Part shown: piece by piece, positions 1,236-26,454 of the stretch
Layout: each line of letters begins with the position of its first letter
Numbering within the stretch: position 1 is the stretch's first letter
Source of the DNA: a virus
Taxonomy: Duplodnaviria > Heunggongvirae > Uroviricota > Caudoviricetes
Direction: 5' to 3' (one strand)
Virus record (IMG/VR): IMGVR_UViG_2529292911_000009
Length of the DNA: 44,421 nt
The notes under the pieces: model-generated
The model's input: the letters and a program-made list of their open reading frames with translations, nothing else
Told to the model about the DNA's origin: nothing
Database searches by the model: none
Position numbers and translations under genes: made by a program

Positions 1236-2505
1236 TCAATGTTCGCTTCCTGTTAACTGCCCGACAAGTGCAACCAGTTCGCTTACCTGATTTTCCAGAG
1301 TGCTGATCCGGGTGCCTGCTGTTGCCAGATTTTTACGTAGCGTTATGTTTTCCTCTTCCAGCGCGGTAACGCGACCATCTGTTTCACGGGCGACCTGAAC
1401 AAGTAACCCCGTCACGGCGGCGTAGTCAACATTCAGATAACGTGTTTCTTCACGTAATTCATTGCCGTCAACCGTTGGTCCCTGCAACTCTTCACCGTAA
1501 TGAGTAAACGATCCCACAGCTTCTGGTATCGCCTCCATTACTTCCTGTGCAATAACGCCAGCATAAGGCATCCCGTTTTCCCTGAGCGTGTAGGTGTATC
1601 CGTTCATTTTACGGATTGCTTTCGTCGCGTCGCTGATAACGAGAATATCGTCTTTAAGGTCGCGGTCTGATGACTGATTCAGCGTTGTGCAATTAATAGC
1701 GCCATTTACATCAAACAACTGGCCTGCTGACGTTTTTTGCGCATAAAACAGATACGCAGCAGACGTTCCAACCTCAAAAACGTTTTGTCGATCACTTGAT
1801 CCCCATACTTTTGCGGCAAATGATAGTTCTGTATTACCTAAGTTCTGTAAAACAAAACGATTGCCAGTCCCTGATTGTTTTGTAAGAGTTAAATCAACAG
1901 TTGAGTTAACCTCATCCTTGTTGATAGTGAGCGCCTGCGCTTTAGCACCGTTAACAGCACCTGTTTTGAGTTGAACTGCTCCATCACTGCCATTAAGTAG
2001 AATCTCTGCATTACTATGGTAGTTCTTAAGTGACACCATTTTGCTTTCGCCTGAGTGCATACCTAACACCCACGCAGCGGAACTACCTGTACTGTTAAGG
2101 CCGCGAACATAGCATGACATTGTAGAAAATCTGCAACGCTACCAAGTATCTCTACCCTACCTCCACCGGATTTAACTGGTGATGATGTTGTTACTGACTT
2201 AACAGAAAGCTCGGTTGCTGAATTGAGATCGTCAGCCGTAAGTAGTTTTTTCCATTCCTGAACCGTTCCGTTTTCAACTGTTCTTCCCCAAAAACCGGAA
2301 TTGCGGCCTCCGAACTGCACAGCATAATTTTTACTAAATTGAACATGAATGCCGCCAAGAACCATAGAGCCTGCCGGGCCGTTTGTACTACCTGCGATTG
2401 GTCTAAATTTGTCGACGTTATCAGTATGCTGAGCGTTCCAGTCATGACCTGTTAATGTTGCGATTCCTGAGTTAGCTGTAATTAACCCAGACGCTTTTAA
2501 GATTT
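1236..2505 (-). pseudogene. side tail fiber, C-terminal part in two shifted frames; includes C-terminal intramolecular chaperone (peptidase S74-like) domain
   Basis: ORFs 2063..2365 and 1236..2120 continue the tail fiber in other frames. Frame junctions fall at a T5 run (plus 2503-2507) and an A4 run (plus 2126-2129); adding one base at each restores one long ORF. The C-terminus (SFTHYGE...YLNVDYAAVTGLLVQVARE) resembles autocleaving chaperone domains. Could be genuine decay or homopolymer sequencing indels. Confidence 0.65.
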
Positions 2506-4512
2506 TTGCACATCAATTCTGTCGTTTGCGAAATTATATGCAATTGCGTTACTAACGCTTCCGGCATCATCATAATCGCGTTTCTGAATAAACCAGTCGC
2601 CAGCATTAGCAATGAGAGTATAAGTAGGCGTGTTAGCCGGGCGATCTGTTTCATTAAATCTTATTGCTGGGTTAGCGCTCCTTATTTGTAAAGGTTTTTC
2701 AACCGTGGATTTCAGTATCGCACTATCTACAATTAAATTACCTTCTGAGGTAAAGTCTAGATATTTTGTAGCACCAGTTGAACCACCGTATGTAAATCTT
2801 ATTGTTAATCGACCTTGCTCATTTGGAAAAGTCTGAACATACATATCAGCGGCAAGGCGCACAGTGTTGTCATTTGCTAACAGCCTCGTATGGAGCATTC
2901 CGCCAGTAGTGTATGCGCCAGTAGAATCACTAGTCCTATCGAGAAATAGACTATTAAGCTGAGGGCTGTTATCCCTGCCTAATCCAAGATTAGTTCTGGC
3001 ACCATCAATAGTTGCCGCACCAGTACCTCCGGCCGCGATCGAAAGCGGAATCCATCCGCTATTCTCTGCATCGAAATAACCCCATGTTCCTGAATCGTAG
3101 ATACCAAAAAATTTGCTTGCATTTTGACAATATACGCGTGTATTACCTGTTAGTTGAGTAAGCCTGTCCACTTCATCTTTTCTTGCGTGACGCGTCCACT
3201 GCGGGCCTATTGTCGGATTCCAGCGATAAGTATAAAGCGAGCGCGTAGCCCATCCCTGAAATACACCTGTATACGCTGGTGTTCCATCTACCTGACTAAT
3301 AAACCCCGTAAGACTGCTTTCACCGGATGCAATCGATGGAAAGCCTTTTGCATTACTCATAATGCGCATAAATCCGATATACCCTGATGGGTTGCCGGAA
3401 ATATCAGGACAATCACGCGGTGATGCCCCGAGGCCGATGCTGGTGCCTACAATCCCTTGCGCCTGGTTGCGATAATTAAGTGCGTCCGCTGCCGATTTCG
3501 CCGCGTTTGTTTCACTGGATTTAGCATTAGTTTCGCTGGCTTTAGCGTTGGTTTCGCTGCTCTTTGCTGCTGCCTCGCTATTTTTCGCGTTGGTTTCTGA
3601 TTTTTTGGCTGCTGTCGCGGAGTTTGCTGATGCAGTTTGTGAGTCTGCTGCCGCCTGTGCGCTGTTATCTGCATTCGTCTCAGACGTTTTTGCGGCCTTC
3701 GCGGAATTTCCTGCCGCCGTTGCCGAGGAAGCTGCACTACTGGCACTTGATGATGCGTTCGTTTCTGATGATTTCGCTGCCTCTTTTGAGGCCGACGCAT
3801 CCCGGGCTGAGGTGGCAGCTTCTGACGCCTTTGTGGTCGCTGCGGATGCAGAAGTGGCTGCAGATTTTTGTGACGCTGCCGCATTCGTTTCTGACGTTTT
3901 CGCGGCACTGGCACTGGTAGCTGCCGCGCTTTTTGAGGACTCTGCAGCAGCAGCACTTTTCGATGCTTCACTGGCCTTTGTTGATGCCGTTCCTGCGCTG
4001 GAAGACGCTGACTGAGCCGACGACGCGGCCTGTCCGGCTGACGTGCTGGCTGCGCGTGCTGAGCCTGCAGCATCAGTCGCATGGGTTGCCGCCTCACGGG
4101 CTGATGTGCTGGCATCACTGGCTGACTTCTTCGCGGCTGCCGTGTTCTGTGCCACCACGGACGCGTTACGCGCCACCTCTTCCACCATCAGTTCAAAACG
4201 GCGCAGAGCCTCCGGACGGGCATCATCCTCCGTCATGGCACCGAGAAAATCATTCAGCGTACCCGGTTGTGAGTCTTCATACACGGTGATGATCCCGGCA
4301 TGCGATGGCGGGAAGCCTTCCACCAACAGAATAACGCTGTACTGACCGTACTCAACGTCCATGCTGTAACGCCCGGCTTCATCCGGATTTTCAGATGCCA
4401 CCGTGTTCACCACCACCGTGGTGCTGTTACGTTTTGCTTTCAGCTGGATTGTGCAGTTCTGTACCGGTTTACCTGCACCGTCTTTCAGTACACCTGAAAT
4501 TTTTACTGCCAT
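2497..4512 (-). CDS. stf: side tail fiber protein (lambda Stf-like), N-terminal 671 aa
   Basis: N-terminus MAVKISGVLKDGAGKPVQNCTIQLKA matches the conserved Stf start. Long Ala/Ser/Thr-rich region with KSSETNA heptad repeats. True ATG at 4512 preceded by GGGGTGA; the ORF-track start at 4518 is a GTG. Confidence 0.85.
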   Translation of the reverse strand: MAVKISGVLKDGAGKPVQNCTIQLKAKRNSTTVVVNTVASENPDEAGRYSMDVEYGQYSVILLVEGFPPSHAGIITVYEDSQPGTLNDFLGAMTEDDARPEALRRFELMVEEVARNASVVAQNTAAAKKSASDASTSAREAATHATDAAGSARAASTSAGQAASSAQSASSSAGTASTKASEASKSAAAAESSKSAAATSASAAKTSETNAAASQKSAATSASAATTKASEAATSARDASASKEAAKSSETNASSSASSAASSATAAGNSAKAAKTSETNADNSAQAAADSQTASANSATAAKKSETNAKNSEAAAKSSETNAKASETNAKSSETNAAKSAADALNYRNQAQGIVGTSIGLGASPRDCPDISGNPSGYIGFMRIMSNAKGFPSIASGESSLTGFISQVDGTPAYTGVFQGWATRSLYTYRWNPTIGPQWTRHARKDEVDRLTQLTGNTRVYCQNASKFFGIYDSGTWGYFDAENSGWIPLSIAAGGTGAATIDGARTNLGLGRDNSPQLNSLFLDRTSDSTGAYTTGGMLHTRLLANDNTVRLAADMYVQTFPNEQGRLTIRFTYGGSTGATKYLDFTSEGNLIVDSAILKSTVEKPLQIRSANPAIRFNETDRPANTPTYTLIANAGDWFIQKRDYDDAGSVSNAIAYNFANDRIDVQKS

Positions 4513-4520
4513 ATTCACCC

Positions 4521-4576: not shown

Positions 4577-5176
4577 TCAGAATTTATAACCAACACCCAC
4601 GATGAACCCGTCAGTGCGCCAGTCACCACTGCCGGAGCCTTCATAAGCGACATCAATGGCCACGGATTCGGTCGGGTTAAACTGCACGCCAGCTCCCCAC
4701 GCCAGAGACGTGTTGCTGTGGCGACCGTCATCACTTCCGGTCAGCACATCGTGCTTTTTCCCCTTGTTGTCAGTTACGCGGAGATAATCCCCGGAGAAAG
4801 TCGACACACGGCTGTAAGCCACACCCGCCATCGCATACGCGCTGAACCATTCATTCACGCGCACAGACGGCCCCGCCATTACGCTGAACCAGCGGTTACG
4901 AACGGAATCTTCATGCCAGCGGGTATCGCTGTAACGGGTAATCTGGCGATTCTTGTCTCCTGCATAGCTGAACGACGTCACCATCCCCAGTGTGTCCGTA
5001 AACTCATAACGGTATTTCACGTTAATCCCGTTCAGATCATCACTGCCGGGAACGTTCGTCCGGGCATGAAGATACCCCGCGCTCAGCGTGGACTGATGTT
5101 CAGCCGCCCATGCAGGCGCACCGGATACGGCCAGACAGATGGCTGCGGACAAAATGGCGGCATAAAGTTTACGCAT
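4577..5176 (-). CDS. lom: Lom/Ail-family outer membrane beta-barrel protein
   Basis: Signal peptide [24 protein letters not shown], alternating beta-strand pattern, C-terminal GYKF. Sits between J and stf as in lambda. Confidence 0.9.
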
Positions 5177-5244: not shown

Positions 5245-8200
5245 TCAGCTAATCGTGATACCTGCTGTGGATTTCTTCATCACCACAACCAGCAAATCGC
5301 TGATGCTTGCTGTGGGATACCAGTTATTTACCAGCCATGCTGACACCGAAAACTCCAGTATCATGTGACCGTGACCGGCAGGCATATCAATAACACCACT
5401 GTAAATCAGCGTATTATCCAGCGCGGTACGGTTATAAATTTCAGCACCGTTTTTCCGCACTATCAGACGGCATGAGGAGTAAATATCAGTATGCTCTCTC
5501 TCATGCTTAGCGCCACTGAATGCCACCGCGGGAATAACAATCTGCCGGTCAAACGGCTGATCGTCATAAACCCTGACGGTAATGGTCCCTGATGGCCACC
5601 GCTCCGGTGCACGGGAGTCCCGGGGGAAAGCTTTGCCCACTGTTTTAACGAGATCGCCTTCAATCTGGTTCGCGGACAGTTTTCCCAGAACCCGACAGTT
5701 CTCGTTAATCGTGACATTGTTGAGCGTCCCTGAATTTGCATTCACATTACCGCTGATATCCGCATTTTTAGCGGTCAGCTTTCCGTCTGGTGTCAGGGAA
5801 AATGCCGGCGGATTTCCACCGCTGGTAATGGTGGGAGCCGTCAGGCGTTTCAGGAACACGTCGTTCATGAATATCTGGTTGCCCTGCGCCACAAACATCG
5901 GCGTTTCATTCCCGTTTGCCGGGTCAATAAACGCGATACGGTTAGCGGCAACCAGAAACTGGCTCAGTTTGCCTTCCTCTGTGTCCTCCATGCTGAGGCC
6001 AATACCCGCGACATAATGTTTGCCGTCTTTGGTCTGCTCAATTTTGACGCCCCACATGGCATTCCACTTATCACTGGCGTCCTTCCACTCTTTCGAAAAC
6101 TCCTCCAGTTTGCTGGCGTTATCCTCCGTCAGCTCGACTTTTTCCAGCAGCTCCTTGCCGAGATGGGATTCGGTTATCTGGCCTTTGAAAAAATCCAGGT
6201 AACCTTCCGCATCATCGCTCGCCCGACCAACAGCCTCCACGAATGCCGATTTGCCGACGGTGTTCACACTGCGGATATAAAAGTAATAATCACGACCCGG
6301 TTTGATATTGATACTGGCGGCTATCCAGTACAGCCCCGTGCCAAGATAGCGGGCTGTGGTTTCAACCTGCCTGATATCGGTAATCCGCTTTTCCGAGAAC
6401 CAGAACTCAAACTGTACCGTCGGATCATAAACCGCAAGATGCGGCGTTGCGGTTATCTGAAAATAGCCCGGCGTCAGCTCAATCCGCGACGGTGCTGCCG
6501 GTGCGGCGATCCGGAACGATACCGACGCCGGATCGCCCTGCTGTCCCCACGCATTTACCGCCCGGACCGTCAGCCTGTAGTTCCCCAGCGCCAGTTGCGT
6601 GAAGCGGTATGTGGTTTCCGTCGTCCTGGCCGTGCTGACCAGCCGCTCACTGCCGTCATCCGCTGCCACGGTCAGGCGAAGCATAAAGCTCACGCCCTTC
6701 ACCACCTTCGGCGTGTCCCATCGCGCCAGCACCTGATATTCCCCGCTGTCTGCGGTGACTTCGGCGGTCAGATGCTGCACTGCTGGCGGCGTGACACCAT
6801 TCACCGTGCCGCTCTGGTCACCGTCAAAGTGCGCCCCGTTATCCACGATGGCTTCTTTCTCCGGTACATGCTGCACGGCAGTGATGGCATACGTGCCGTC
6901 GTCGTTCTCACGGATACTCACACAGCGGAACAGGCGCTGGCGCAGCGTCGGCAGCTTCAGCCCCCACACGCTGTATCCGGCAACGCCGTCAGGAACCCGG
7001 CTCACTTTCACCTTCACGCCGTCGGTGACGGACTGGACCTCCACGCTGACCGGATTGCCACTTCCGTCAACCAGGCTTATCAGCGTGGTGCCGGAGGATG
7101 GCAGCGTGATTTCACGGTCGAGCGTCAGCGTCCGGGTCTGGCTGTTCACCGCCAGCACACGCCCGCCGATGCTGATCCCCGCATAGTCATCATCACAGAT
7201 TTCAATGACATCGCCCGGTACATGGCGAAGCCCTTCGGCACCCACGCTGAAATCCACGGTCTGCGTCTCCAGCAGCTCCGTTTTAATCAGCCACAGCCCG
7301 GCGCGGTGTGCCTGCCCCCGGCTGGTACAGCCAAAGGCATCCATCTTCGTGACGTTACGACCGTAACGGGCAATGGCCTGCGTATCCTCCACAAGCTCTG
7401 TCGCCGTCTCCCAGCCGTTATCCGGGTCAATCCAGTTCACCTCAACGGCATTATGGCGGTCCTTCAGGGCGCTGAAGCTGTAGCGGAACGGCGCGCCATC
7501 ATCCGGCATCACCACATTACTGCGGTTATAGGTCCACACCTTATCCGACGGTCGGTCCTGCACGAACGTCAGCGTCTGCCCGTTCCATACCGGCATACAG
7601 CGCATCGCCGAGCAGAAATCGCTGAGAACATCCCACGCCTTACGCTGTGTGGTCAGCCAGGCATTACAGGTGATGCGCGGCTCCGTGCCGCCAAAACCAT
7701 TCGGTACCAACTGGTCGCAGTACTGGCCGATAACGTACAGCGCCCATTTGTCCACATCTGCCGCACCAAGACGTTTCCCCATGCCGTAGCGTGGATGGGT
7801 CAGCATATCCCACAGACACCAGGCCATGTTGTTGCTGTATGCTGGCTTAAACGTTCCGTCCCAGATACCGCTGTATTGCCGCGTCTGCGGGTTATAGTTC
7901 GACGGCACCTGCAGAATACGCCCGCGCAGATGATAATTACGGCTCACCTGCTGGCTGCCGAACTGCTCCGAATCCACCTGCACGCCGACCAGTGCCGTAT
8001 TCGGGTAGCACTGTTTCACATCGATGATTTCGGTGTATGACGACCAGAGCGTTTTGTTCTGCAGCTGGTCTGTGGTGCTGTCCGGCGTCATCCTGCGCAT
8101 CCGGATATTAAACGGGCGCGGCGGCAGGTTATCCACCACCACCGAGGCCAGATACTGCGAGGTGGTTTTGCCCTTAATGGTGATGTCTTTTTCCGTCACC

Positions 8201-8640
8201 CAGCCACCGTTACGTTGTATCTGAACCAGCAGGCGGACTTCCGATGGATTCCTGTCCCCCTTTGAGGTGGTTTCCACCAGTGCCTGCACACCGAAGGTAA
8301 AGCGCAGACGGTCGATGTTTGCCGACGTGATGGTGCGGGTGATCGGCGTGTCATATTTCACTTCCGTACCCAGCACCGTCTCGGAGCCGGAGGATTCAAA
8401 TCCCTCCGGCGGTGTCTGCTCCTGCTCGCCTGCCCGGAACACCACCGTGACGCCGGAGATATTGGTATTCCCCTCGCTGTCCAGCACCGGCGTACTGTTC
8501 AGCAGCACGCTTTTTAATCCATCCACCGGACCTTCAACCGGACCTTCGCTGATGGCATCAATCACACTCAGCAACTGCGTGGACTTCAGGTTGTCCTTCG
8601 CTTCGCGCGGGGTATGCCCCTTACTGCTGCCTTTACCCAT
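5245..8640 (-). CDS. J: tail tip host-specificity protein J
   Basis: 1131 aa. N-terminus [34 protein letters not shown] and most of the length are collinear with lambda J as recalled; the C-terminal roughly 150 aa diverge. Confidence 0.95.
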
Positions 8641-8700: not shown

Positions 8701-9348
8701 TCAGCGACCAATCACCACAACCTGACCACCATCACCTTCATCTGCCGTGCTGATCTCCTGAGATACCACCCGCGACCCCACACGCATTTCACCGTACAGA
8801 ACGGGCAGAACATTGCCCTGGGCAACCATGTTATCCAGTGACGAGAAATACGTGTTCTGTTTGCCGTTATCTGTACTGGCTGCCGTGGGCGTCCTGGCTT
8901 TCGGTGCCAGCATCTGCGCCACACCACCCAGGATCATACTGGCCCCTGCTGCATACATACCCGATACAGCCGCGGCCCCTAGCCAGCCCACAGGGTTCCA
9001 CCATGCCACCGCAATCAGCGCCGCACCCAGCACCGCCTGAAACACACCGCCACTTTTGGCCCCCTCCAGACGCGGAACGATGTGGATCACGGCACCATTT
9101 GCCAGCGGCTCATTAAGACGGGCAGACAATTCGGTTTCACCTGCATCACGCCCGGCAATCCGTACCTGATACCAGCCGTCACTCAGTTTCTGACGAAACG
9201 CCGGGATCTGCATGGCCAGCGCCCGGATGGCTTCGGCCCCCGTTTTCACACGAAGGTCGATGCGGCGGCCAAATCGTTGTAAATTCCCGTAAAGGCAGAT
9301 GCGTGCCATGCCCGGTGACGCCAGAGGGAGTGTGTGCGTCGCTGCCAT
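8701..9348 (-). CDS. I: tail assembly protein I
   Basis: 215 aa, MAATHTLPLASPGMARICLYGNLQRFGRR..., lambda I-like with hydrophobic C-terminal region. Position between K and J. Confidence 0.85.
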   Translation of the reverse strand: MAATHTLPLASPGMARICLYGNLQRFGRRIDLRVKTGAEAIRALAMQIPAFRQKLSDGWYQVRIAGRDAGETELSARLNEPLANGAVIHIVPRLEGAKSGGVFQAVLGAALIAVAWWNPVGWLGAAAVSGMYAAGASMILGGVAQMLAPKARTPTAASTDNGKQNTYFSSLDNMVAQGNVLPVLYGEMRVGSRVVSQEISTADEGDGGQVVVIGR

Positions 9349-9989
9349 TTGTCGGTATACCTCTCTCGTTTGCTCAGTTGTTCAGGAATATGGTGCAGCA
9401 GCTCGCCGTCGCCGCAGTAAATGGCGGCATGATTCGGCACCGATGAACCAAAACAGCACAGCAGCACATCGCCCGGCTGCGCCTCTGTCAGTGCGACACG
9501 GTAAAAACTAGTCGCCTCCATATTGTCAAGATAGAGATTCTGGCCGTTACGCCACCAGTCATCCCCGCGATAAAAATCCGGCATCTCAATTTCCGCCAGA
9601 TGGTATGCATCCCGGAACAGCGTGTAACAGTCCGTCACCCCGTGCTCAAAGCGCCGCCCGGTAAGATGTGGCACACAGCGGAACTTGTGAATCGCCCCCC
9701 GGCAGACCAGCCACCACGGCAAATCACTCTGCACCTGCAGCCGCCTGTCGACCTCACTCAGCCAGGGCAGACCACCGGGGTGGCTGTGGACCAGTGCCAC
9801 AACCTCCCCCTGCATCTCTGCCTGCAGCCAGTCCTCCGGCGACATCCGGAAATACGCCTCCGGCTCACCGGAGATATTCACGCAGGGAAAATATCTGTCC
9901 CCCTCCGGCGTTCTCACCACGAAGCCGCACGACTCCGCTGGCGCACATCGCCGGGCGTGCGCCAGAATCGCTGATTCTGTCTCTGTCAT
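9246..9989 (-). CDS. K: tail tip assembly protein K (JAB/MPN plus NlpC/P60-like)
   Basis: HSHPGG metal-binding motif and a Cys/His peptidase-like C-terminus. Start taken at MTETES; the ORF-track start at 10064 overlaps L and is probably an over-extension. Confidence 0.8.
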   Translation of the reverse strand: MTETESAILAHARRCAPAESCGFVVRTPEGDRYFPCVNISGEPEAYFRMSPEDWLQAEMQGEVVALVHSHPGGLPWLSEVDRRLQVQSDLPWWLVCRGAIHKFRCVPHLTGRRFEHGVTDCYTLFRDAYHLAEIEMPDFYRGDDWWRNGQNLYLDNMEATSFYRVALTEAQPGDVLLCCFGSSVPNHAAIYCGDGELLHHIPEQLSKRERYTDKWQRRTHSLWRHRAWHASAFTGIYNDLAAASTFV

Positions 9990-9993
9990 GGGT

Positions 9994-10692
9994 TTACTGC
10001 GAAAGTTTGTTAATGGAAAGGTAGCCGCCAAAATTGCCGACGTTATTGCGGAACTTGCAACCACTCAGGCATTTGCTGCATTTATCCTTCGTGATATCGG
10101 ACGTTGGCTGGTCATATTCATCCGCGACCGCCGGGCCATCATAACCGCACTCATCGCCGCGGTAGATCCAGGTGCAGGTGTTGGCCAGCATGATGCGCCC
10201 CGGAAAAACAGCACCATCCGTTTCCGTCGGTGTGGACAGCACAAAAGAGGCACTGACCGCGCTCAGTTCGCTGCACTGTTCGATGCGCCAGCGGCTGATC
10301 ACCTCCTGCTCCGGATCGGCGTCACTGTTTCCGTTGACGAAGTTCACCGCATCCAGAAAACGGGCGTAAACCTTACGCCGGACCACCGTTCCGCCGACCA
10401 GACTCTGCAGATCTTCCGCCATCCCGGTGACCATGCCGTACAGATTAGAGACTTTAAGCGTTGGCCTTGCACTGGCTCCTTTGCCGTTCATCTCAAATCC
10501 GCTTCCCTGAATGGGATAAGCCTGATACTGCCGCCCCTGCCAGGTGACTGGTTCACCTTTTTCGTTCTGCTCATTACAGAAGAAATAACGATCTCCGCCG
10601 ACTTCTGTCAGATCAATTTCCCAGAGCACGACCAGCGCGGATTGCTCCGTTTTAGTGCACTCATTGAGTGTTTCCTGCTGTATATCCTGCAT
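9994..10692 (-). CDS. L: minor tail protein L
   Basis: 232 aa, same length and order as lambda L. Cys cluster near the C-terminus. Confidence 0.85.
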   Translation of the reverse strand: MQDIQQETLNECTKTEQSALVVLWEIDLTEVGGDRYFFCNEQNEKGEPVTWQGRQYQAYPIQGSGFEMNGKGASARPTLKVSNLYGMVTGMAEDLQSLVGGTVVRRKVYARFLDAVNFVNGNSDADPEQEVISRWRIEQCSELSAVSASFVLSTPTETDGAVFPGRIMLANTCTWIYRGDECGYDGPAVADEYDQPTSDITKDKCSKCLSGCKFRNNVGNFGGYLSINKLSQ

Positions 10693-11048
10693 CAGTGAGT
10701 GACCTCTTCAAAGGTACAGTTAAAATCGGTATACATGGTATTATCCGAAATGCTCCACTCCCTGCAGACAACCCGGACAGTCCTGTTGTGTTTTGGCGGA
10801 CGCCACAAAAAAGCACGAATCCCGGCATGACGGGATAAAAAACTGTCCAGCGCGGCACGGGAATATTCATCTGTGACACGAAATACCGGTTTAAACGTTT
10901 TCAGATCCGCATTCAGACCACCAGCCCGTCGCTGTTCATATCCGTCACCAAACTTTACCGTAATAACTGATGGCTTTCGTGTCGTCTCCATCCCCTCACG
11001 GGGGATCCAGTTAAAAACTTCAGGCTCAGGCACTGTACAATCCTCCAT
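10692..11048 (-). CDS. M: minor tail protein M
   Basis: FGDGYEQR...GLNADLKTF...FLWRPP matches the lambda M pattern (FGDGYSQR...GLNANLKTY...FLWTPP). Start codon uncertain (11048 or 10991). Confidence 0.75.
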   Translation of the reverse strand: MEDCTVPEPEVFNWIPREGMETTRKPSVITVKFGDGYEQRRAGGLNADLKTFKPVFRVTDEYSRAALDSFLSRHAGIRAFLWRPPKHNRTVRVVCREWSISDNTMYTDFNCTFEEVTH

Positions 11049-14000
11049 CCCGACGCGATGACTGCATAATTGACACAACCCTGCTGTCGATCAGATCCAC
11101 CAGTCCCCTGGCTGAGCGCGCATCTATCTCGCCATTGCTCCCTTGATTCTGAATGCTGATGTGATACACGGGAGAATAAACAAATCCACCGCCACCATTC
11201 ACATTTCCAATGGCCCTGACCCCAAGAGAGCCGTCCGCTGCCCGTGTCAGTGGCATGATTGCTTCAGGCCCGGCCTCGCCCATCAACCCGGCACCTTTCG
11301 CAAAAGCAAAATACGTCGGTGTATCCACAATAGTGTTACTGTAAGCACTCAGATTTGCCGATGTGTAAACACCACCTTTTGCGTTTGCCACTGCCCCCGA
11401 AATCCATCCGCCGACCGTACCAAGCCACCCTCCGGCACCGGAGAGTGATTTCAGTCCGTTAACAATGGCTGCATTCATCAGAATTTTTGAAACTTCCCGG
11501 AGAACTGAACTCCCCCAGTTCCTCCAGTCCACAACATTCCCGGCCAGTGCATCGGAAATATTTGATACCAGCCCGTCCATCGTGGAAACGACAGCATCTG
11601 CCGCCTGTGAAGCATAATCGGTGGCACTGTCTGCCCAGTTGGTCAGTCCCTCCTGGAGTCCGGCATTCCAGTTATTACGTAAAGCATCGGCCTTTGCATA
11701 ATAATCCTGCTGATCGCTGAGACGCTCTTCCAGATATTTTTTATTCAGTTCTTTCTCCTGTTTCCACAGAGCTTCTTCAATTTCTCCGGCCTGATACTGT
11801 CTCAGCAGCTCGTTATTTTTCTGCTCAAACGCCTGCCGGATACTCCACATTTCCTGGAGTCGTTCACGCATCCGTGAGCCTTCACCATATCCCAGCAACT
11901 GCGCTTCGTCAGATGCCCGGGCACTGGCATTACTGTCCGCCAGACTGCTCTCATACGCAGCAAGCTGCTCACGAATCTTTTTCTGGTCGATGAGTGCTGC
12001 ATTCTGCAAAAGCGTTTTTTTCTGCGCTTCTGACAGGGTTGATAATTCGCCCTGACTGACCTGATATTTCATCTTAGCCAGTTCAGTATTCTGCCCTGCC
12101 AGTGCTATTTGTTCTTTTTGCTGTTTAATCAGCCGTTTATAAATATCTTCTGTTTTTTCCGCTTCGGTCTTTTTATGCGCTTTGGGTTTATTTGCCTGGT
12201 TATTTCGCCAGGCATCCAGTGAGTTATTGATATAATTCTGTCTGGCTGTCTGATACGCCTCTCCCACAAAGCCGAGATCATCCGCAGCATAACCCAGGCG
12301 GGCACGCTCACGGGCTTCCCCCTTCAGGCGGGACAGAGCCAGTTCGCGCTCACTGTTATTCAGTGCGGCCTGCTGTTTATCATCCAGGGTTGCCTGTGGT
12401 AGCCGTAACGGTACATTCACCAGCCCCTGTCGCTGCTGAAGTAATTCATTACCGAGCCCGAGAAGGCGATTAAACTCGGTATGCTGCCCATTCATGATCA
12501 ACAGGGACTGATACGCTTTGTTTTGTTCCGCGGCCTGTTGACGGATCAACGCCACCCGTCGCTCCTCCAGCCCGGCAAGCACATCCTGAATGGATTGCGC
12601 TTTGCCCTGCATTTGTGTGAGACGGGACTGTTCAACTGCCAGTTGATTTGTTGCTTCTGCAAGCCCTTCTGTGACAGTTTTTACCGACGTCATGTGGTTA
12701 ATCATAAAACCGTTATCGGTTGTCCAGCCCGGGTTTGCCAGCACATACTGATAGCCAGCAATTTTTTCCTGTAAGGATTTAATCTTACTTTTCTGCTCGT
12801 CAATTAACCTGTTTTGCTCATCAAGTGCCTGCCGCGTCTTTTCCTCATTATCTGACGCTTCAGGAAGCGACATTGCCGACGTTTTCTGGCGAATTTCGTC
12901 GATTGTTGCGGCATACTGGCGTGCAGATTCTCTGGCCTGCTCCTGATTCTGATACATCGTGTACCAGGCCGTCGCCCCCAGCATGACGAGTCCCGGCACA
13001 CCACCAACCAACCCCAGCGCACCACTTAACAGACGACTCCCCACTGACGTGACAGTATTCAGCGTTGTCTGTGCCGCTGTTCTGGCCGCAATATTACGGG
13101 TAAGTGACGCCTGGGCAGCTGTCAGCTTCGCTTCTGCTGCGGCCTGCCTTTCGGTACCGCGAGCAGCAACAACCGCCTGTTGCGCACGATAAACCGCCGC
13201 ACGCGCCCTGGCGGTTGCTATCTGTGTCCCCCGAAGTTGCGCTTCAGCAAGAGCCACTTCTTTTCTGGCTGCAGTAATTAATCCGGCAGTTGCAGATCCA
13301 GCAGACGACGCCATATTGCCAAAATATCGGGCTACCCCGACGGCAACCAGTGCGCCAGCTGCAGCAGCCACGGTATCCATATTGTCTGCAACACCATTCA
13401 ACACCCCGGTGAGTGTCTTTGTCACTCCGCTTGCCTCGTTCGCACCACCAACCCAGGCCATAAAGGCGTTTTCAACTTTGGTTGCAGAGGATGAAACAGT
13501 ATCAGGCATTGCTGCATATTCATCACGCAACGCCCCAAGCTGACTAATCAGTGCAGGAACAACCTTATCGGCGGTCAGTTTTCCGTTATCCGCCATGGCC
13601 TTCAGATCCTTACGGGCAACACCCATTCCCGCAGCCAGCGCACGAATAACACGATCGCCGTTCTCATTCACAGAGTTAAATTCTTCACCGCGCAGCACTC
13701 CCTGCGCCAGTGCCTGACTGAACTGCGTGATCACCGAACTGGCTTCTGCTGTACTGGCACCGGATAATTTCAGGCCCGTAGAGATCGCCTCGGTGACTTT
13801 CAGTACCTCCTCAGAACTGTAGCCATACTCCCGCATGGAAGCTGCAGAGCGGGCAAAAAGGCTGGCGTTATCAGAAAACGCCGTTCCCGTTCTCTGGCTG
13901 ATTGCCATTAATTCACGTTGTGATACCTGAAAATCATCACTGGACTGTGAAGCCTGCTTCAGACGGGCATTTACTGAATTCCACTCATCGGCGAGAGAAA

Positions 14001-14259
14001 TAAGATGACCGGTAGCAAAAGCTCCGGCAAATGCCCCCGCCATATTCAGTGCCGAAGATTTAGCTATATTTATCTGATCCGTCACTTCTGCCAGTGCACG
14101 CCGCATTTCACGGGATGCAGCAGCGGACTGCCGGCCTCCGTTCTGCATGGTACGGTAGTAATCCTGCCCCATACGCGAAGCCCGGGAGATCTCTGACTGG
14201 AATGACCGGGAATTTGCCGAGATTTTAATAATCAGTTCACGTAATGTCGCCACACTCAT
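11026..14259 (-). CDS. H: tail tape measure protein (H-like)
   Basis: 1077 aa, long predicted helical Ala/Gln-rich protein between GT and M. Gly-rich C-terminal region. Confidence 0.9.
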   Translation of the reverse strand: MSVATLRELIIKISANSRSFQSEISRASRMGQDYYRTMQNGGRQSAAASREMRRALAEVTDQINIAKSSALNMAGAFAGAFATGHLISLADEWNSVNARLKQASQSSDDFQVSQRELMAISQRTGTAFSDNASLFARSAASMREYGYSSEEVLKVTEAISTGLKLSGASTAEASSVITQFSQALAQGVLRGEEFNSVNENGDRVIRALAAGMGVARKDLKAMADNGKLTADKVVPALISQLGALRDEYAAMPDTVSSSATKVENAFMAWVGGANEASGVTKTLTGVLNGVADNMDTVAAAAGALVAVGVARYFGNMASSAGSATAGLITAARKEVALAEAQLRGTQIATARARAAVYRAQQAVVAARGTERQAAAEAKLTAAQASLTRNIAARTAAQTTLNTVTSVGSRLLSGALGLVGGVPGLVMLGATAWYTMYQNQEQARESARQYAATIDEIRQKTSAMSLPEASDNEEKTRQALDEQNRLIDEQKSKIKSLQEKIAGYQYVLANPGWTTDNGFMINHMTSVKTVTEGLAEATNQLAVEQSRLTQMQGKAQSIQDVLAGLEERRVALIRQQAAEQNKAYQSLLIMNGQHTEFNRLLGLGNELLQQRQGLVNVPLRLPQATLDDKQQAALNNSERELALSRLKGEARERARLGYAADDLGFVGEAYQTARQNYINNSLDAWRNNQANKPKAHKKTEAEKTEDIYKRLIKQQKEQIALAGQNTELAKMKYQVSQGELSTLSEAQKKTLLQNAALIDQKKIREQLAAYESSLADSNASARASDEAQLLGYGEGSRMRERLQEMWSIRQAFEQKNNELLRQYQAGEIEEALWKQEKELNKKYLEERLSDQQDYYAKADALRNNWNAGLQEGLTNWADSATDYASQAADAVVSTMDGLVSNISDALAGNVVDWRNWGSSVLREVSKILMNAAIVNGLKSLSGAGGWLGTVGGWISGAVANAKGGVYTSANLSAYSNTIVDTPTYFAFAKGAGLMGEAGPEAIMPLTRAADGSLGVRAIGNVNGGGGFVYSPVYHISIQNQGSNGEIDARSARGLVDLIDSRVVSIMQSSRRDGGLYSA

Positions 14260-14267
14260 TCTCCGGA

Positions 14268-14291
14268 CGAAAAAAACCGCCGAAGCGGTTA
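14268..14291 (-). terminator. intrinsic terminator-like hairpin between T and H inside the tail operon
   Basis: Minus strand AACCGC-UUCG-GCGGUU hairpin followed by U7, 10 nt after the T stop and directly before the H ribosome-binding site. Confidence 0.6.
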
Positions 14292-14298
14292 TGTTGAC

Positions 14299-14610
14299 TC
14301 ACTGAGACACTATTAAAAGCGCGTTTTCCAGTCCGGCAAATGGATCTGAGACGCCTTCTGTCTGCTCTTGTTCCCACTGAAGAAGCGCATCATTCAGTGG
14401 GACTTTGACACCCTGCGCACCGTAAACCGCAGAAACTATCTGGGCAGCCCGGATATCAGCCCGCTCGTCACCCAGCGGGCTGAACCTGTCAAATTCTGCC
14501 CACATCATGATTTCTGATGCGGACATTTCCCGGCGTAACTCTGACAATGTGCGCCCCATCCTGAGCGCCAGCATCATCAGAAAACGCATCCCCGGAAGCG
14601 CTACTTTTTT
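14299..14610 (-). CDS. T: T segment of the tail assembly chaperone GT fusion, reached by -1 programmed frameshift
   Basis: The -1 frame stays open from the slippery site through to the stop at 14299; no independent start or RBS is needed. Confidence 0.8.
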   Translation of the reverse strand, partial: KKVALPGMRFLMMLALRMGRTLSELRREMSASEIMMWAEFDRFSPLGDERADIRAAQIVSAVYGAQGVKVPLNDALLQWEQEQTEGVSDPFAGLENALLIVSQ

Positions 14611-14987
14611 TTAACCTCGCCGGCATCACTGATCAGTTCCAGAGACTGCCGAAGAAGCCGCGCATGCACCGGGCCATACACGGCAATCACCTGTTCACGA
14701 TCATCCTCTGAAAATACAGGTTGCAGTCCGGTATCACACAGAACATCAATGAATAGTTCAACATCTGCCTCCAGATTTCGGCGGGCGCGCTCCGCAACGG
14801 ATAACGGTGTCTCATCATCTTTTGCTTTAACGATCTCCTGCCAGCGCAACCAGGCTTCTGCAGAAGGTTCCCGTAATACAACCGTTGCCCCTTCCCATTC
14901 AGGCACATCAACAGTTTTATGGCGAAACCCCGACATCGTTGCCAGTGCCAGATTGCGGATATTTTTAGTCATCACATCTATCCTCAT
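14601..14987 (-). CDS. G: tail assembly chaperone G
   Basis: 128 aa acidic protein directly downstream of the major tail gene, ending EVKKK at the slippery site. Confidence 0.85.
   Translation of the reverse strand: MRIDVMTKNIRNLALATMSGFRHKTVDVPEWEGATVVLREPSAEAWLRWQEIVKAKDDETPLSVAERARRNLEADVELFIDVLCDTGLQPVFSEDDREQVIAVYGPVHARLLRQSLELISDAGEVKKK
14604..14612 (-). other. slippery heptamer A_AAA_AAG for -1 programmed ribosomal frameshift (G to GT)
   Basis: mRNA reads GAG GUU AAA AAA AAG UAG; shifting -1 on A AAA AAG continues into the T frame. Confidence 0.8.
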
Positions 14988-15691
14988 TAACTGACGGTAA
15001 CAGTGCAGGAAGTGGAGGTCACCTTGTTAACAGGGCTTGCTGAATCAGAAATCTCGCAGGTATACGCACCGGCATCACCTGATGCTGCTGATGCCTTACT
15101 GAATGTTGCCGCCGTCTGTCCGGAAACAGGAGAACTACCTTTCTTCCAGACATAAGAATAAGGCGGCACACCACCGGCAGCCTCAACCACCATTTCGAGT
15201 TTCGCTCCGGCAGAAACCTGCAGCGTGCTGTTTAAATCGACCTTCACTTTCAGCGGCTCTGTCGTCAGCACAGGTTTACCTTTCAGGCGCAGGGAAAACG
15301 TTGCAGCCACAACACCATTAGTTCCTGCAGACCAGGTATGCTGACGCACCTCTGCCATAAAGGTAAATCCGTTGCCTGACGGAAAAATAACTTTAAAGCC
15401 ATACGTGGTGTCATTGTCATAGGCACTGCGCAACGCGTTCTGGGCAGCATTGAGGTAAAAGTTGCCTGACATGGAAATCTCTGACGCGGCACCAAGGCCG
15501 TTAATATTTTCCTGCTCAACAGAACACAGCGTGGTGACATCAATATCCTGCTTTTGTCCTGCGGTAAACTGCACCTCTTTGATTGTACAGCTCAGGCCAA
15601 GATAGCTGGCAGAATCCAGGGTTTCTGCTGTTACCGGTGCAGACGAAATCATAATTTTCGTCAGTTGCGAACGCTCAAAATTAGAGGACAT
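14987..15691 (-). CDS. V: major tail tube protein with C-terminal Ig-like domain (V-like)
   Basis: Position upstream of G/GT/H. C-terminal Ig-like segment (TSTSCTVTVS). Start set at MSSNF (AGGAGA RBS); the upstream ORF-track extension translates the terminator hairpin. Confidence 0.8.
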   Translation of the reverse strand: MSSNFERSQLTKIMISSAPVTAETLDSASYLGLSCTIKEVQFTAGQKQDIDVTTLCSVEQENINGLGAASEISMSGNFYLNAAQNALRSAYDNDTTYGFKVIFPSGNGFTFMAEVRQHTWSAGTNGVVAATFSLRLKGKPVLTTEPLKVKVDLNSTLQVSAGAKLEMVVEAAGGVPPYSYVWKKGSSPVSGQTAATFSKASAASGDAGAYTCEISDSASPVNKVTSTSCTVTVS

Positions 15692-15702
15692 ACTCGTCTC
15701 CT

Positions 15703-15730
15703 GAAAATAAAAAACCCGCCAGCGGCGGGT
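15703..15730 (-). terminator. intrinsic terminator-like hairpin upstream of the major tail gene
   Basis: Minus strand acccgccgctggcgggt hairpin followed by TTTTTTATTTT, then RBS and V start. Confidence 0.55.
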
Positions 15731-15750
15731 GGGTAAAATCATTAACGACC

Positions 15751-16095
15751 TCAGGCTATTACCTGAAATTCAAGCGTGGCTCTGCTCAGACGGGAATCAG
15801 GATCATAACCCTGAGTTTTAGAAATAACGGAGGGTGCAAGTTGCCTTACCGCATCAAGCGCCTGCTCACGGATATCATCTGCGTCATCAGGTACTGTTGC
15901 CCAGACATCGATCTGCACGGTAATTCTGGATTCAGCCTGACCATCAAGCACATCAGACGCAGTGTCAGACACCACAGAAAATACCAGCCATGGCGGAGAT
16001 ACCGCAGGCTTTCCCTCCGTCAGCGGGACCACATAAGGATAAACCTGTCCTCCGGCCAGTTGAGACAGCAGGGAATACAGTGTGGTCTCTCTCAT
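15751..16095 (-). CDS. tail terminator / tail completion protein (U-like position)
   Basis: 114 aa, position immediately upstream of the major tail gene; start overlaps the upstream gene stop. Assignment by synteny only. Confidence 0.55.
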   Translation of the reverse strand: MRETTLYSLLSQLAGGQVYPYVVPLTEGKPAVSPPWLVFSVVSDTASDVLDGQAESRITVQIDVWATVPDDADDIREQALDAVRQLAPSVISKTQGYDPDSRLSRATLEFQVIA

Positions 16096-16541
16096 TTACT
16101 TAAGACCTCATCAATAGCCTGATTCATTCGCTGTATGGCAATCTGTGCTGCCAGTTCCTCTGTCGTATCGAAAGCCGGGCGAATGAACGGATGCGCGGGC
16201 ATGTTTATCGTTCCCAGCTCCACAAAGCGCCAGTAAAACGCATTTCGGGGATCACTGGCTTTCATGCTGTTATCACTGTTTCCGGTTCGCAGGTTCCGTC
16301 CACGAATGTGGACACCCGAGATAATTTCCCCCCGACGCTTTGAACGCTGAGTGAGAACAACCACATTTTTCTTCAGTTTCCCGGTTCGCTCCGGCGCACG
16401 TTCAACAACTGCATCCCGCATAACTTCAGCACCGGCACGGGTGGCATCGCGCAGTACCTTATTGTTTTCTGCCCTGCTGAGCGTCTCCAGATCCCGTGCA
16501 ATATCCGCCAGACCTGAAAAATCAAGACTGAAATCCATCAC
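16092..16541 (-). CDS. HK97 gp10-family head-tail joining protein
   Basis: 149 aa; pattern PERTGKLKKN...GTINMPAHPFIRPA recalled as typical of the HK97 gp10 family. Syntenic position. Confidence 0.65.
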   Translation of the reverse strand: MMDFSLDFSGLADIARDLETLSRAENNKVLRDATRAGAEVMRDAVVERAPERTGKLKKNVVVLTQRSKRRGEIISGVHIRGRNLRTGNSDNSMKASDPRNAFYWRFVELGTINMPAHPFIRPAFDTTEELAAQIAIQRMNQAIDEVLSK

Positions 16542-16876
16542 ACATTCCCCTTCTGAGAACAGAGTATCTCAAGCCGTGTGGCACGAGCATCCGGTATCGG
16601 CGGACCGTCTATACTCAGAATCGCGCCTTTGAATGCACCAGTCAGCACTTTCAGACATGAAGTTGCTGTTACATCTCGCCGGAATCTCATCCAGACCCTC
16701 ACTGTAGCCTGAGCAGTTTCTGCGCCTCCGGATATTCTCTCCCTGCCACTGATCCCCTTAACTTCTGCCCATATGGTTGCCCCCTCCGTCATTGTTTCCA
16801 CAGGGTGCCCTGACGGAGACCGAACGGTGGTGGCATTCAGAATAACCACACGATCACGTAATCTTCCTGCCTGCAT
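16538..16876 (-). CDS. head closure / head-tail adaptor protein
   Basis: 112 aa, between connector and gp10-like gene; overlapping stop/start coupling. Confidence 0.6.
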   Translation of the reverse strand: MQAGRLRDRVVILNATTVRSPSGHPVETMTEGATIWAEVKGISGRERISGGAETAQATVRVWMRFRRDVTATSCLKVLTGAFKGAILSIDGPPIPDARATRLEILCSQKGNV

Positions 16877-16884
16877 GAATCCTC

Positions 16885-17190
16885 CTATGTTCCGGGATGA
16901 AATCGATACATCCGCAGTCCGGTATAGAAAAAATCAGGCACTGCATCCTGCATTTCCCTGTTCTCGTACCAGTAGCCAACCAGTTGCATAAGACGCAGTT
17001 TTATCAGAGGTGTTATTACAAGCCCGGTCGTATCCTGCTCAGAAACAGTTTCATCGTAAAGCGTCCGGTTTAAAAACTTTTCAGCCTCTTCCCTGGCAGC
17101 AGCCAGATACATCATAAGAAGAGAATTCTCCTGTTCATTGTCATCATCAATCCGGCACTGAACACGAAGCTCTTCCAGAGTGGGCATCAT
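16885..17190 (-). CDS. head-tail connector protein (gp6-like)
   Basis: 101 aa acidic protein after the major capsid gene; typical size and position. Confidence 0.6.
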   Translation of the reverse strand: MMPTLEELRVQCRIDDDNEQENSLLMMYLAAAREEAEKFLNRTLYDETVSEQDTTGLVITPLIKLRLMQLVGYWYENREMQDAVPDFFYTGLRMYRFHPGT

Positions 17191-17201
17191 TTGGGCAACC
17201 T

Positions 17202-17390
17202 CTATGAATGCTGTTTTTTAGACTTATCAGCCCCCCGCGCAACAGGTGTTCTCTTATCAGAGACAATCCCAGCTGCAGTGGCAATTTCGCGTACCCGTTC
17301 GGGTAATTCTTTATCTTCATACTCACCGGCCCGAATAATCTCAACACGCATACCGTCCGGTGACCATTTCAGATCTTGTTTCAGGATCAT
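17202..17390 (-). CDS. small hypothetical protein in head module
   Basis: 62 aa ORF fitting exactly between capsid and connector genes, with AGGTGA RBS 7 nt before the ATG. Confidence 0.5.
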   Translation of the reverse strand: MILKQDLKWSPDGMRVEIIRAGEYEDKELPERVREIATAAGIVSDKRTPVARGADKSKKQHS

Positions 17391-17441
17391 GATTCTTTCA
17401 CCTGTCAGAACAGGGGGCGCACTTCTGCGCCCCCTGAATGA

Positions 17442-18647
17442 TTACGCCGCTGCAATCTTCAGCAGTTTGATGGCCTGCGAATCGACCAGCATGCCGCCGG
17501 TGCGCTTGGTGGTATAAAAACCGACAAACGGTTTATTGGTGTACGGGTCACGCAGAATGCGGGTACCGATACGGTCAACGATGGTGTAACCCCGTTTGAA
17601 GTTACCAAATGCAATGGCTTTCGCATCAGCGGCAATATCCGGCATCTGTTCGTTTTCAGCGATAGCGTAACCCGCCAGAGAGGACGGCTGCCCCAGCTCC
17701 AGCCCCGGACGCCACAGATAGTTACCCTCACTGTCTTTCAGCAGACGGATGGCAAACAGACTGTTGTTGTTCATCATGAACTTCGCGCCAGTGCGGTGTG
17801 CCTTACGCAGCGTGTAAATCAGTTTGATAATGGCATCTGCGGTCACCGCCGTCGCTTCGCCGGATACAATATGCTGAAGTTTGCCGAACGCCCGGACCTT
17901 GTCTGTTTCATCCGTGGACTCATACGCCAGGAACCCTTTCGGCTTCTTGGTACCATCGCCGGTGGTAAAGGCAATTTCTTCCTGTTCGGCAAATTCGGTT
18001 GCCAGCTCGCTGTTGATCCATGCTTCCACGTTGAAAAAGGCATCATCCAGCATTTTCTGGGTGGCCTGCGGGTTACCGTAGATTTCCCCCATGAAAGGTT
18101 CAATCAGGCCCAGTTTTGAGGTGGCAGTCTGGGAGCGCGCGTCAGTCTCGCCAACCCATCCGGAAGCCGTGCCGCCCAGATTCACCAGTTTTTTGTAGTC
18201 GGAACCACCAACGCTGATCACCGTGGCTTCCTGGCGCATCACCACTTCATCTTTCAGCAGGGTGAGAATGTTGCGATCCAGTGCTTCCGGCACGGCATAG
18301 CCGCCGTCTTCATCGGTGCCCACCTGTAATGCCTTGCGCTCCAGATCGCGCAGACCATCTTCACGGCCTTTACGCAGGAAGCCCACAAACGCTTCTTTAT
18401 GCTCGGTGGCCAGTTTATTTTGCGCACCACCTGCCGGACGTTTCAGCTCAAGCAGCTCTTTTTCAAGATCGCTTTTGAGGTTTTCCAGCTCGCTGAGTTT
18501 CCCGTTCAGGGTTTCCACCTGCCCGGCAAGTTTGCCTTTTTCCTGCTCAATCGCATCCACGCGCTTGTCGTTCTTTGCTTTGAAGTCGTCAAACTTCTGC
18601 TGCAGCTCCTGCGCGACCTGTTCGACATCTTTAATATCAACCGCCAT
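17442..18647 (-). CDS. major capsid protein, HK97 fold, with N-terminal delta (scaffold-like) domain
   Basis: 401 aa. N-terminal roughly 100 aa predicted coiled coil, then a capsid-like body. Follows the protease gene. Confidence 0.9.
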   Translation of the reverse strand: MAVDIKDVEQVAQELQQKFDDFKAKNDKRVDAIEQEKGKLAGQVETLNGKLSELENLKSDLEKELLELKRPAGGAQNKLATEHKEAFVGFLRKGREDGLRDLERKALQVGTDEDGGYAVPEALDRNILTLLKDEVVMRQEATVISVGGSDYKKLVNLGGTASGWVGETDARSQTATSKLGLIEPFMGEIYGNPQATQKMLDDAFFNVEAWINSELATEFAEQEEIAFTTGDGTKKPKGFLAYESTDETDKVRAFGKLQHIVSGEATAVTADAIIKLIYTLRKAHRTGAKFMMNNNSLFAIRLLKDSEGNYLWRPGLELGQPSSLAGYAIAENEQMPDIAADAKAIAFGNFKRGYTIVDRIGTRILRDPYTNKPFVGFYTTKRTGGMLVDSQAIKLLKIAAA

Positions 18648-18661
18648 CGTATTTCTCCTGA

Positions 18662-19348
18662 TTAGAAGTTTAGATTTTTCAGTGCATTCAGTGCAGAGCC
18701 CACATCCTCAGCGTCGCGCAGGGACAGTGCGCCATAGCCCCCGGCCATGAATGCTTTGGCCTGGGTACGGGAGAGTCCGACATCACGCAGGACTCTTTCG
18801 ATTTTTTTCTGTTCGGGGATTTCCCCGCGGGCCAGTGCGTTCTTGACGTCGCTGATCCGCGCCTCGTCGTTAGACGGGAACGTCACCAGGCTGACTTCCC
18901 AGAGGTCGATTTCTTTCAGCAGAAAGGCTTCTTTGCTCCGGTCGTATTCCCAGTCTTTCAGGACGTACCCAATAGAAAGGCCGGTTAACGAACCGGCCTT
19001 CATGTGTGCATGTGCGCGTTTTGCGAGGGGATCATCATCAATAAGCAACCGTCCCCTGACGTAAAGCCCGACATCGTCTTCCTTCATTTCGGTGTAAACA
19101 CCGATGGGTTCATCCATGCGGTGCTGCCAGAGCAGCGCAGGTAACGCTTTTCTGTCACTCCACGCCCGCAGTGAAGCAGCAAATGCCCCGGACATCACCA
19201 CATCATCGTGGCTGTCCTTTACACCAAAGACGGAGCCATACCCTTCAAACTCACCGGAGTCACTGACAGATTTCAGACTCAGCGGTACATCAAGACGTTG
19301 TTTCGTCTGCATTGGCGTTATCCTTCTGCTTACCGGCTTTACTGCCAT
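18662..19348 (-). CDS. prohead maturation protease (HK97 gp4-like)
   Basis: Between portal and capsid genes. Start uncertain (19348 or 19312); overlaps the portal 3' end. Confidence 0.8.
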   Translation of the reverse strand: MAVKPVSRRITPMQTKQRLDVPLSLKSVSDSGEFEGYGSVFGVKDSHDDVVMSGAFAASLRAWSDRKALPALLWQHRMDEPIGVYTEMKEDDVGLYVRGRLLIDDDPLAKRAHAHMKAGSLTGLSIGYVLKDWEYDRSKEAFLLKEIDLWEVSLVTFPSNDEARISDVKNALARGEIPEQKKIERVLRDVGLSRTQAKAFMAGGYGALSLRDAEDVGSALNALKNLNF

Positions 19349-20531: not shown

Positions 20532-20713
20532 TATTTACCTCCGCCGACAGACGGCTGTGTACGGTCGAGATATCGCGCCACCAGCCACGACCAGAACAGG
20601 CACAGCACCCCGGCAACAACAAAACCCGCCGGGGGATAAATCAGCCAGGCACCATACGCCAGCAAAAGCGCACCCAGCACGCCCACCAGTGGCGCGAGAA
20701 TTATCAGAAACAT
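20531..20713 (-). CDS. small two-helix membrane protein
   Basis: 60 aa, two hydrophobic segments, GAGG RBS, packed tightly between TerL stop and portal start. Confidence 0.5.
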
Positions 20714-20724
20714 AATGACCTCGG

Positions 20725-26220: not shown

Positions 26221-26295
<75 letters not shown>

Positions 26296-26298
26296 ATA

Positions 26299-26374
<76 letters not shown>

Positions 26375-26376
26375 AC

Positions 26377-26453: not shown

Positions 26454-26454
26454 C

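Follow-up and report, generated by a model that had tools for sequence, protein, structure and literature searches.

The J protein (tip attachment protein, or central tail fibre) encoded in the window, as we call the whole 44,421-nt stretch of viral DNA analysed here (IMG/VR record IMGVR_UViG_2529292911_000009), belongs to a lambdoid E. coli prophage. Its C-terminal receptor-binding cassette most likely binds the trimeric porin OmpC, not LamB, and does so in an allele-dependent manner. OmpC is the most likely receptor because the C-terminus is nearly identical to that of 1A2, an engineered J chimera which targets OmpC. We place the probability of this reading at about 0.8, and no higher because three substitutions separate the two proteins.

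The prophage and its J gene

The prophage is inserted beside tRNA-Ser(CGA), mtfA and tRNA-Asn, and four genomes of pig origin (CV839-06, ETEC1731, ETEC1747 and ETEC4085) match the right end of the window at 100% identity. Its head genes are not of the lambda type, the capsid protein matching Pfam Phage_capsid (HK97-like family), and four tRNA genes lie downstream of the gene for the Q antiterminator.

The J gene is intact (5245..8640, minus strand, from the open reading frame list and its translation). It is 3396 nt long and encodes 1131 aa, against 1132 aa for lambda J. The product matches, at 100% identity, the E. coli 14EC029 protein WP_000515626.1 ("phage attachment tail tip protein J"), and the gene is one that is routinely annotated as J. 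It carries the full J domain series in Pfam (FNIII-A_GpJ, Phage-tail_3, Ig_J, Ig_J_second, Phage_Tail_Tip and Ig_GpJ_C, all far over their cut-offs), that is, the hub domains, two FNIII/Ig domains, the tail-tip fibre and a C-terminal Ig-like receptor-binding domain. It also occupies the expected position in a tail-tip module of the order H-M-L-K-I-J-lom-stf, which is annotated in the same order in 14EC029. I (8701-9348) and K (9246-10064) lie upstream of J, and lom, encoding an Ail/Lom outer-membrane protein (4577..5176, minus strand; Pfam Ail_Lom, E = 2.7e-120), lies directly downstream.

A lambda-like body with a divergent C-terminal cassette

Window J is collinear with lambda J (NC_001416) with a single gap and shares 90% identity with it overall (BLASTP), but this identity is very unevenly distributed. 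The body (aa 1-966; 5743..8640, minus strand), which includes the hub domains, the FNIII domains, the alpha-helical shaft and the central straight fibre, is identical to lambda J at 940 of 966 positions (97.3%) and is 97.8% identical to phage 434 J. It is followed by a linker of 16 residues starting with NANSG (aa 967-982; 5695..5742, minus strand), 14 of which are shared with lambda and 14 or 15 with each of lambda, 434, 21 and WGPS6. From there to the C-terminus (aa 983-1131; 5248..5694, minus strand) only 62 of 149 residues (41.6%) are identical to lambda J. At the DNA level, identity to lambda drops from 95-100% to about 50-57% within nt 2880-2940 of J. Within the body, aa 902-933 (5842..5937, minus strand) are identical to the lambda J peptide defined as the trigger of the HepS abortive-infection nuclease (PMC13043305), and F924 is kept.

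A sequence-only reading of this DNA had described most of J as collinear with lambda J and the last ~150 residues, after NVTINENC, as different, and both observations hold on alignment. The span it had given, 5245-5800, comprises the last 185 codons of J and the stop codon, while the truly divergent stretch is 5248-5694. By its own criterion, a C-terminus highly identical to that of lambda J would have overturned the idea; the proper alignment gives the 41.6% reported above.

Fold and predicted receptor-facing loops

The C-terminal domain has diverged from that of lambda but is not unrelated to it: both are Ig-like domains of the same kind. Pfam Ig_GpJ_C, an Ig-like beta-sandwich, covers aa 1001-1131 (5248..5640, minus strand; E = 1.7e-37). 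An AlphaFold2 monomer model of aa 954-1131, based on an alignment of 26 sequences, shows a domain made up entirely of beta structure, with a core pLDDT of 80-96 (79 overall). The best PDB matches to this model in Foldseek are, in order, 9wca, 9wcb and then lambda 8xck/8xcj. The same entries are found at the sequence level, where window J matches 9wca/9wcb ("A8 gpJ 713", E = 5e-169) and also lambda 8xcj/8xck. The title of 9wcb is "open state of A8 gpJ 713 with OmpC G17 from E. coli EDL933", and 9wca is the closed state. In the LamB-specific lambda J (8xck/8xcj), a homologous Ig-like domain ends an almost identical central fibre.

In lambda, four "bottom loops" of J, L1-L4, insert into LamB (Ge & Wang, PMC11101478). 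The text of that paper gives no residue numbers for them and the loops were therefore taken from the AlphaFold2 model, in which the receptor-facing end of the domain was assigned by following the strand order from the end attached to the fibre. The four loops placed at the distal end in this way would face the receptor and probably correspond to L1-L4. Predicted L1 (aa 1004-1017; 5590..5631, minus strand), between model strands A and B, is identical to lambda at 7 of 14 positions and to 1A2 at all 14, and shows a 4-residue indel with respect to phage 21 and A8. Predicted L2, placed by the model topology (aa 1047-1052, EREHTD; 5485..5502, minus strand), shares none of its six residues with lambda and five with 1A2, and differs from 21, A8 and 434 by indels of 5-6 residues. 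For predicted L3 (aa 1072-1078, TALDNTL; 5407..5427, minus strand) the corresponding figures are 1/7 for lambda and 7/7 for 1A2, and for predicted L4 (aa 1102-1115; 5296..5337, minus strand) they are 3/14 and 14/14.

The predicted loops are thus less conserved than the rest of the domain in each of the comparisons with lambda (27%, or 11/41, vs 48%), phage 21 (46% vs 72%) and 434 (15% vs 51%), and nearly all indels with respect to these three phages fall within them. The loops at the fibre end, on the other hand, carry motifs conserved across all cassette types (an 11-residue motif and DMPAG). The cassette does not have the predicted loops of the LamB-binding domain of lambda.

Near-identity to the OmpC-targeting chimera 1A2

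Natural J C-termini have been fused to lambda J at residue 964 in order to escape LamB dependence (Brödel et al., Nature 2024; PMC11338833). Two of the resulting gpJ chimeras, A8 and 1A2, were characterised and both recognise OmpC. The DNA of GpJ 1A2 was taken from supplement 1 of that paper, in which the text has dropped bases and seven positions are ambiguous. The protein was stitched together over three reading frames against the window protein, the 1A2 cassette differing from that of the window at most synonymous positions. As reconstructed, the 1A2 C-terminus agrees with that of VT1-Sakai (Sp15) of E. coli O157:H7 Sakai wherever the residue is unambiguous. Counted from NANSG (aa 967) onwards, window J is 98.1% identical to 1A2, 98.2% to VT1-Sakai and 98.8% to Stx2a_WGPS2, and 40 of the 41 predicted loop residues are identical to those of 1A2, without indels. 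The two proteins are also alike in overall design, since both carry the same type of cassette on a lambda-type body. The junction in 1A2 is, however, engineered, at lambda residue 964, whereas window J is a natural mosaic with its break at about residues 967-982.

Three substitutions distinguish the window cassette from 1A2: R1048 (K in 1A2), I1094 (T) and S1124 (A). Only the first, in predicted L2, concerns a predicted receptor-facing loop. R1048 is also found in WGPS2 and 2G7b and S1124 in WGPS2, while I1094 is the residue present in lambda and is located near the non-receptor end of the domain in the model. These three differences would probably leave the choice of receptor unchanged.

The behaviour of 1A2 particles has been described (PMC11338833). 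They deliver DNA into 98.7% of MG1655 cells carrying the OmpC of EDL933 (MOI 233) but into only 5.2% of wild-type MG1655 (MOI 50), a strain which has its own LamB gene and K-12 OmpC. The OmpC allele swap by itself restores 1A2 delivery into MG1655. In a strain without lamB and ompC, 1A2 works on several OmpC alleles (e.g. G3 and G5) and fails on G1 and G2. Over 23 OmpC alleles, 1A2 and A8 differ in those which they accept: A8 accepts both K-12 and EDL933 OmpC, while 1A2 rejects that of K-12. Recognition of EDL933 OmpC by gpJ-1A2 has been restated by the same group (bioRxiv 10.1101/2025.02.28.640725). Given 98% identity to 1A2, OmpC-dependent, LamB-independent delivery is likely to extend to the window allele. 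By analogy with 1A2, the window cassette most likely recognises EDL933-type OmpC and many other natural OmpC variants but not that of K-12.

We found no receptor data in the literature for natural phages with this cassette type (2G7b, PhiR47_1, PhiR46_1 and VT1-Sakai/Sp15). Mathieu 2020 provides J clusters only, with no receptor data for such phages, the SNIPE paper tests ManYZ only, and a 2026 receptor-prediction preprint and a porcine ETEC paper contain nothing on lambda-type J domains.

Receptor use among related J proteins

The sequence-only reading had proposed a receptor other than LamB and suggested alignment of the C-terminus with J proteins of known receptor. This alignment gives 1A2 as the closest (98.1%), and its receptor, OmpC, was among the candidates then listed; the proposal is thus supported, by the resemblance to 1A2. 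Divergence from lambda is by itself insufficient to infer a receptor switch, because the domain of phage 21, which has diverged from lambda to a similar degree, natively uses LamB. Indeed, receptor use in the J family is labile. The A8 domain is 82% identical to that of phage 21, yet uses OmpC, and the 434 domain is about 46% identical to all other types, yet also uses OmpC. It is because receptor choice in this family does not track overall divergence that near-identity to 1A2 decides the case.

Several relatives share features with window J. A8 gpJ has the same fold, is the best structural match to the model and shares the framework motifs starting with DDQ, but is only 65.8% identical to window J and differs from it in L1 and L2 by 4- and 5-residue indels. 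The J proteins of 434, Stx2a_WGPS6 and phi330, whose receptor is OmpC (PMC12502783; PMC11101478), belong to the same domain family as window J. They form a separate OmpC-binding lineage to which the window cassette does not belong: 434 J is 40.4% identical over aa 983-1131, with 15% in the predicted loops, and from NANSG onwards 434 is 45.7% and WGPS6 44.4% identical. As members of another cassette type, at about 40-46% identity, phi330, WGPS6 and 434 were rejected as evidence for the window allele. The J protein of Gifsy-1, which also uses OmpC, is uninformative as a proxy, its C-terminus being reported as just 18% identical to that of lambda (PMC12312913); no Gifsy phage is present among the protein-level matches listed.

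Other readings of the cassette

It might be argued that the domain still binds LamB, as does that of phage 21 (Lambda_4C10 type), which among natural phages of known receptor has the nearest domain (70% identity; 67.6% over aa 983-1131) and whose C-terminal strand and linker are nearly identical to those of window J. Phage 21 natively uses LamB although its domain is only 51% identical to that of lambda, and a single J mutation adds OmpC to its range (PMC11336670). The predicted receptor-facing loops are, however, only 46% identical between the two proteins, with nine indel positions, and phage 21 was rejected as a receptor proxy in favour of 1A2, whose domain is much closer and for which direct data indicate OmpC. 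Chimera 1A2 barely delivers into wild-type MG1655 despite the LamB gene of this strain, and delivers into lamB-deleted cells given a suitable OmpC allele. Retention of LamB as the receptor is therefore very improbable. The reading in which J is merely a relic of a decaying prophage and no longer mediates infection is similarly remote. The integrase is split into two open reading frames, the same sequence being annotated as "frameshifted" in ETEC1731, and stf, encoding the side tail fibre (1236..4518, minus strand; Pfam phage_tail_N and Peptidase_S74 at its N- and C-terminus, respectively), is split over three reading frames by three homopolymer indels, at 2130, 2498 and 2503, with respect to the intact 3276-nt gene of 14EC029 and ETEC1731. 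With these lesions the prophage may be defective, and J may never act in the source strain. J itself, though, is full-length and identical to the protein of another genome, and the stf indels, being located in homopolymer runs and not shared by near-identical genomes, may be assembly errors. Moreover, lambda PaPa infects without a functional Stf, and an integrase defect is no bar to virion production or adsorption.

A subtler alternative keeps a porin as receptor but supposes that K1048R, T1094I and A1124S shift specificity, either towards other OmpC alleles (perhaps those found in porcine ETEC hosts) or by adding a second porin such as OmpF. The receptor range of J can be altered by very few mutations (PMC11336670), 1A2 and A8 already differ in the OmpC alleles which they accept, residue 1048 lies within predicted L2, and the exact window allele is rare and mostly of pig origin. 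Nevertheless, K/R is a conservative exchange, R1048 and S1124 recur in other phages with this cassette type, and I1094 is the lambda residue, near the end of the domain away from the receptor, so that we regard a shift of this kind as unlikely. That the allele defined by R1048, I1094 and S1124 has an OmpC-allele range, or an additional porin receptor, unlike that of 1A2/VT1-Sakai is itself doubtful; if true, it would be a natural instance of J and OmpC being finely matched within one host lineage.

Mosaic origin and distribution of the cassette

When phage genomes are searched by tblastn with the C-terminal 165 aa of J, four cassette types can be distinguished, and alignments confirm them. That of the window (93-99% identical) is present in VT1-Sakai, Stx2a_WGPS2, the PPompW prophages, 2G7b, PhiR46_1 and JLK-2012. 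The others are those of phage 21 and Lambda_4C10 (62-70%), of lambda (46%) and of 434, WGPS6 and mEp460 (41-46%). At the DNA level the cassette is 97-100% identical to those of VT1-Sakai and Stx2a_WGPS2, while the remainder of J in these two is just 60-83% identical to that of the window. Conversely, lambda, 434 and 4C10 share the body of window J (91-99% DNA identity per 150-nt block) but not its cassette. The homology to 434 begins again at 5283, with 38 nt left before the stop codon of J, and extends through lom. Window J is thus a mosaic in which a lambda/434-type body (aa 1-966) and a VT1-Sakai/1A2-type cassette are joined within the linker (aa 967-982), which forms the 5′ recombination junction of the cassette. 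These patterns of identity mark the cassette as a horizontally exchanged unit of ~0.4 kb, and its position between conserved sequences on both sides would suit exchange by homologous recombination.

The cassette type is widespread. The last 471 nt of J have a match in 3497 of 5426 complete E. coli genomes, 3350 of them (about 62% of all genomes) with at least 80% coverage. The median is two copies per genome and 2133 records show at least 95% identity. On the other hand, just five complete E. coli genomes carry the exact window allele (100% DNA identity), and four of these come from pigs.

Proposed mechanism and significance

The cassette retains the framework of the lambda J domain, an Ig-like beta-sandwich, but differs in its predicted receptor-facing loops. 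By analogy with lambda J-LamB, for which the conformational trigger has been described (PMC11101478), and with A8 gpJ-OmpC, the three tip domains would attach to the porin trimer by their distal loops and then splay apart. This splaying would cause the central straight fibre to twist and the helical shaft to flip, opening the tail tip and triggering DNA ejection. Because the fibre, shaft and hub parts are 97% identical to those of lambda, only the recognition step would differ, and the trigger mechanism is presumably the same in the two proteins.

Window J is a widespread, already known and already exploited J variant. Experiments have established OmpC as the target of its cassette type, which serves in engineered lambda delivery particles against O157 E. 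coli. The example of phage 21 sets a limit on how such cases may be read in general, since divergence of the receptor-binding domain by itself predicts no receptor switch. For the prophage studied here, host range should follow the OmpC allele and not the maltose-regulated LamB. About 62% of complete E. coli genomes contain this cassette type, usually more than once, and polymorphism of OmpC is therefore probably one of the main factors deciding which strains the prophages that carry the cassette can enter.

Mosaic virion module and split side tail fibre gene

The virion module of this lambdoid prophage (11026-22482, minus strand) is mosaic, joining capsid, terminase and tape-measure genes to a lambda-like tail tip. 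The capsid protein (17442-18647, minus strand) matches Pfam Phage_capsid, an HK97-like family, and the large terminase lies at 20725-22482 on the same strand. In lambda, entry through the inner membrane requires ManYZ. The tape-measure protein is 1077 aa long here compared with 853 aa in lambda and, given this difference, the inner-membrane entry requirement may also be unlike that of lambda.

The side tail fibre gene, stf (1236-4518, minus strand), is split over three reading frames into an N-terminal ORF of 673 aa, short fragments and a C-terminal ORF of 294 aa which carries the Peptidase_S74 chaperone domain. The split results from three single-base homopolymer indels at 2503, 2498 and 2130 (A5 versus A4, A4 versus A3 and T4 versus T5), taking as reference the intact gene of 3276 nt found in 14EC029 and ETEC1731, two E. 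coli genomes with near-identical prophage sequence. Either the break is genuine and stf is a pseudogene, as it is in laboratory lambda PaPa, or it stems from misassembly.

tRNA genes, exonuclease and prophage end

A short distance downstream of the Q antiterminator gene (26725-27420) are four consecutive tRNA genes (Gly-TCC, Thr-TGT, Lys-TTT and Met-CAT; 26221-26530, minus strand), at a position occupied in Stx phages by tRNA and toxin genes. An 813-aa protein (38408-40849, plus strand), annotated merely as "exonuclease" in ETEC1731, has an Exonuclease VIII (RecE-like) region and, at its C-terminus, an Rv2179c-like 3′-5′ exoribonuclease domain.

The prophage integrase (41111-42135, plus strand) is present as two overlapping ORFs of 223 and 150 aa, and the identical sequence in ETEC1731 is labelled "tyrosine-type recombinase/integrase, frameshifted". 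Since the gene is split, prophage excision may have been lost. The region beyond (42188-44421) includes tRNA-Ser(CGA) (42188-42277), which adjoins the prophage end, followed by mtfA (42332-43168), tRNA-Asn (43269-43344) and a second integrase (43495 onward). The ETEC1731 counterpart of the latter is likewise frameshifted and is located next to ybtS, in the yersiniabactin island.

Tail tip protein J

For 1A2 and A8, the OmpC-recognising gpJ chimeras of PMC11338833, supplementary file 10 (source data of Extended Data Fig. 2) lists the same values for the strain carrying EDL933 OmpC (panel C) as for K-12 OmpC (panel B). This seems to be a copying mistake, made in the file itself or when its text was extracted; panel C was therefore set aside and the other panels were used.

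Residues 902-933 of J, the tip attachment protein (5842-5937, minus strand), are identical, including F924, to the lambda J peptide reported to activate Gifsy-1-encoded HepS, an abortive-infection tRNA nuclease (PMC13043305). This identity would predict sensitivity of the phage to HepS.
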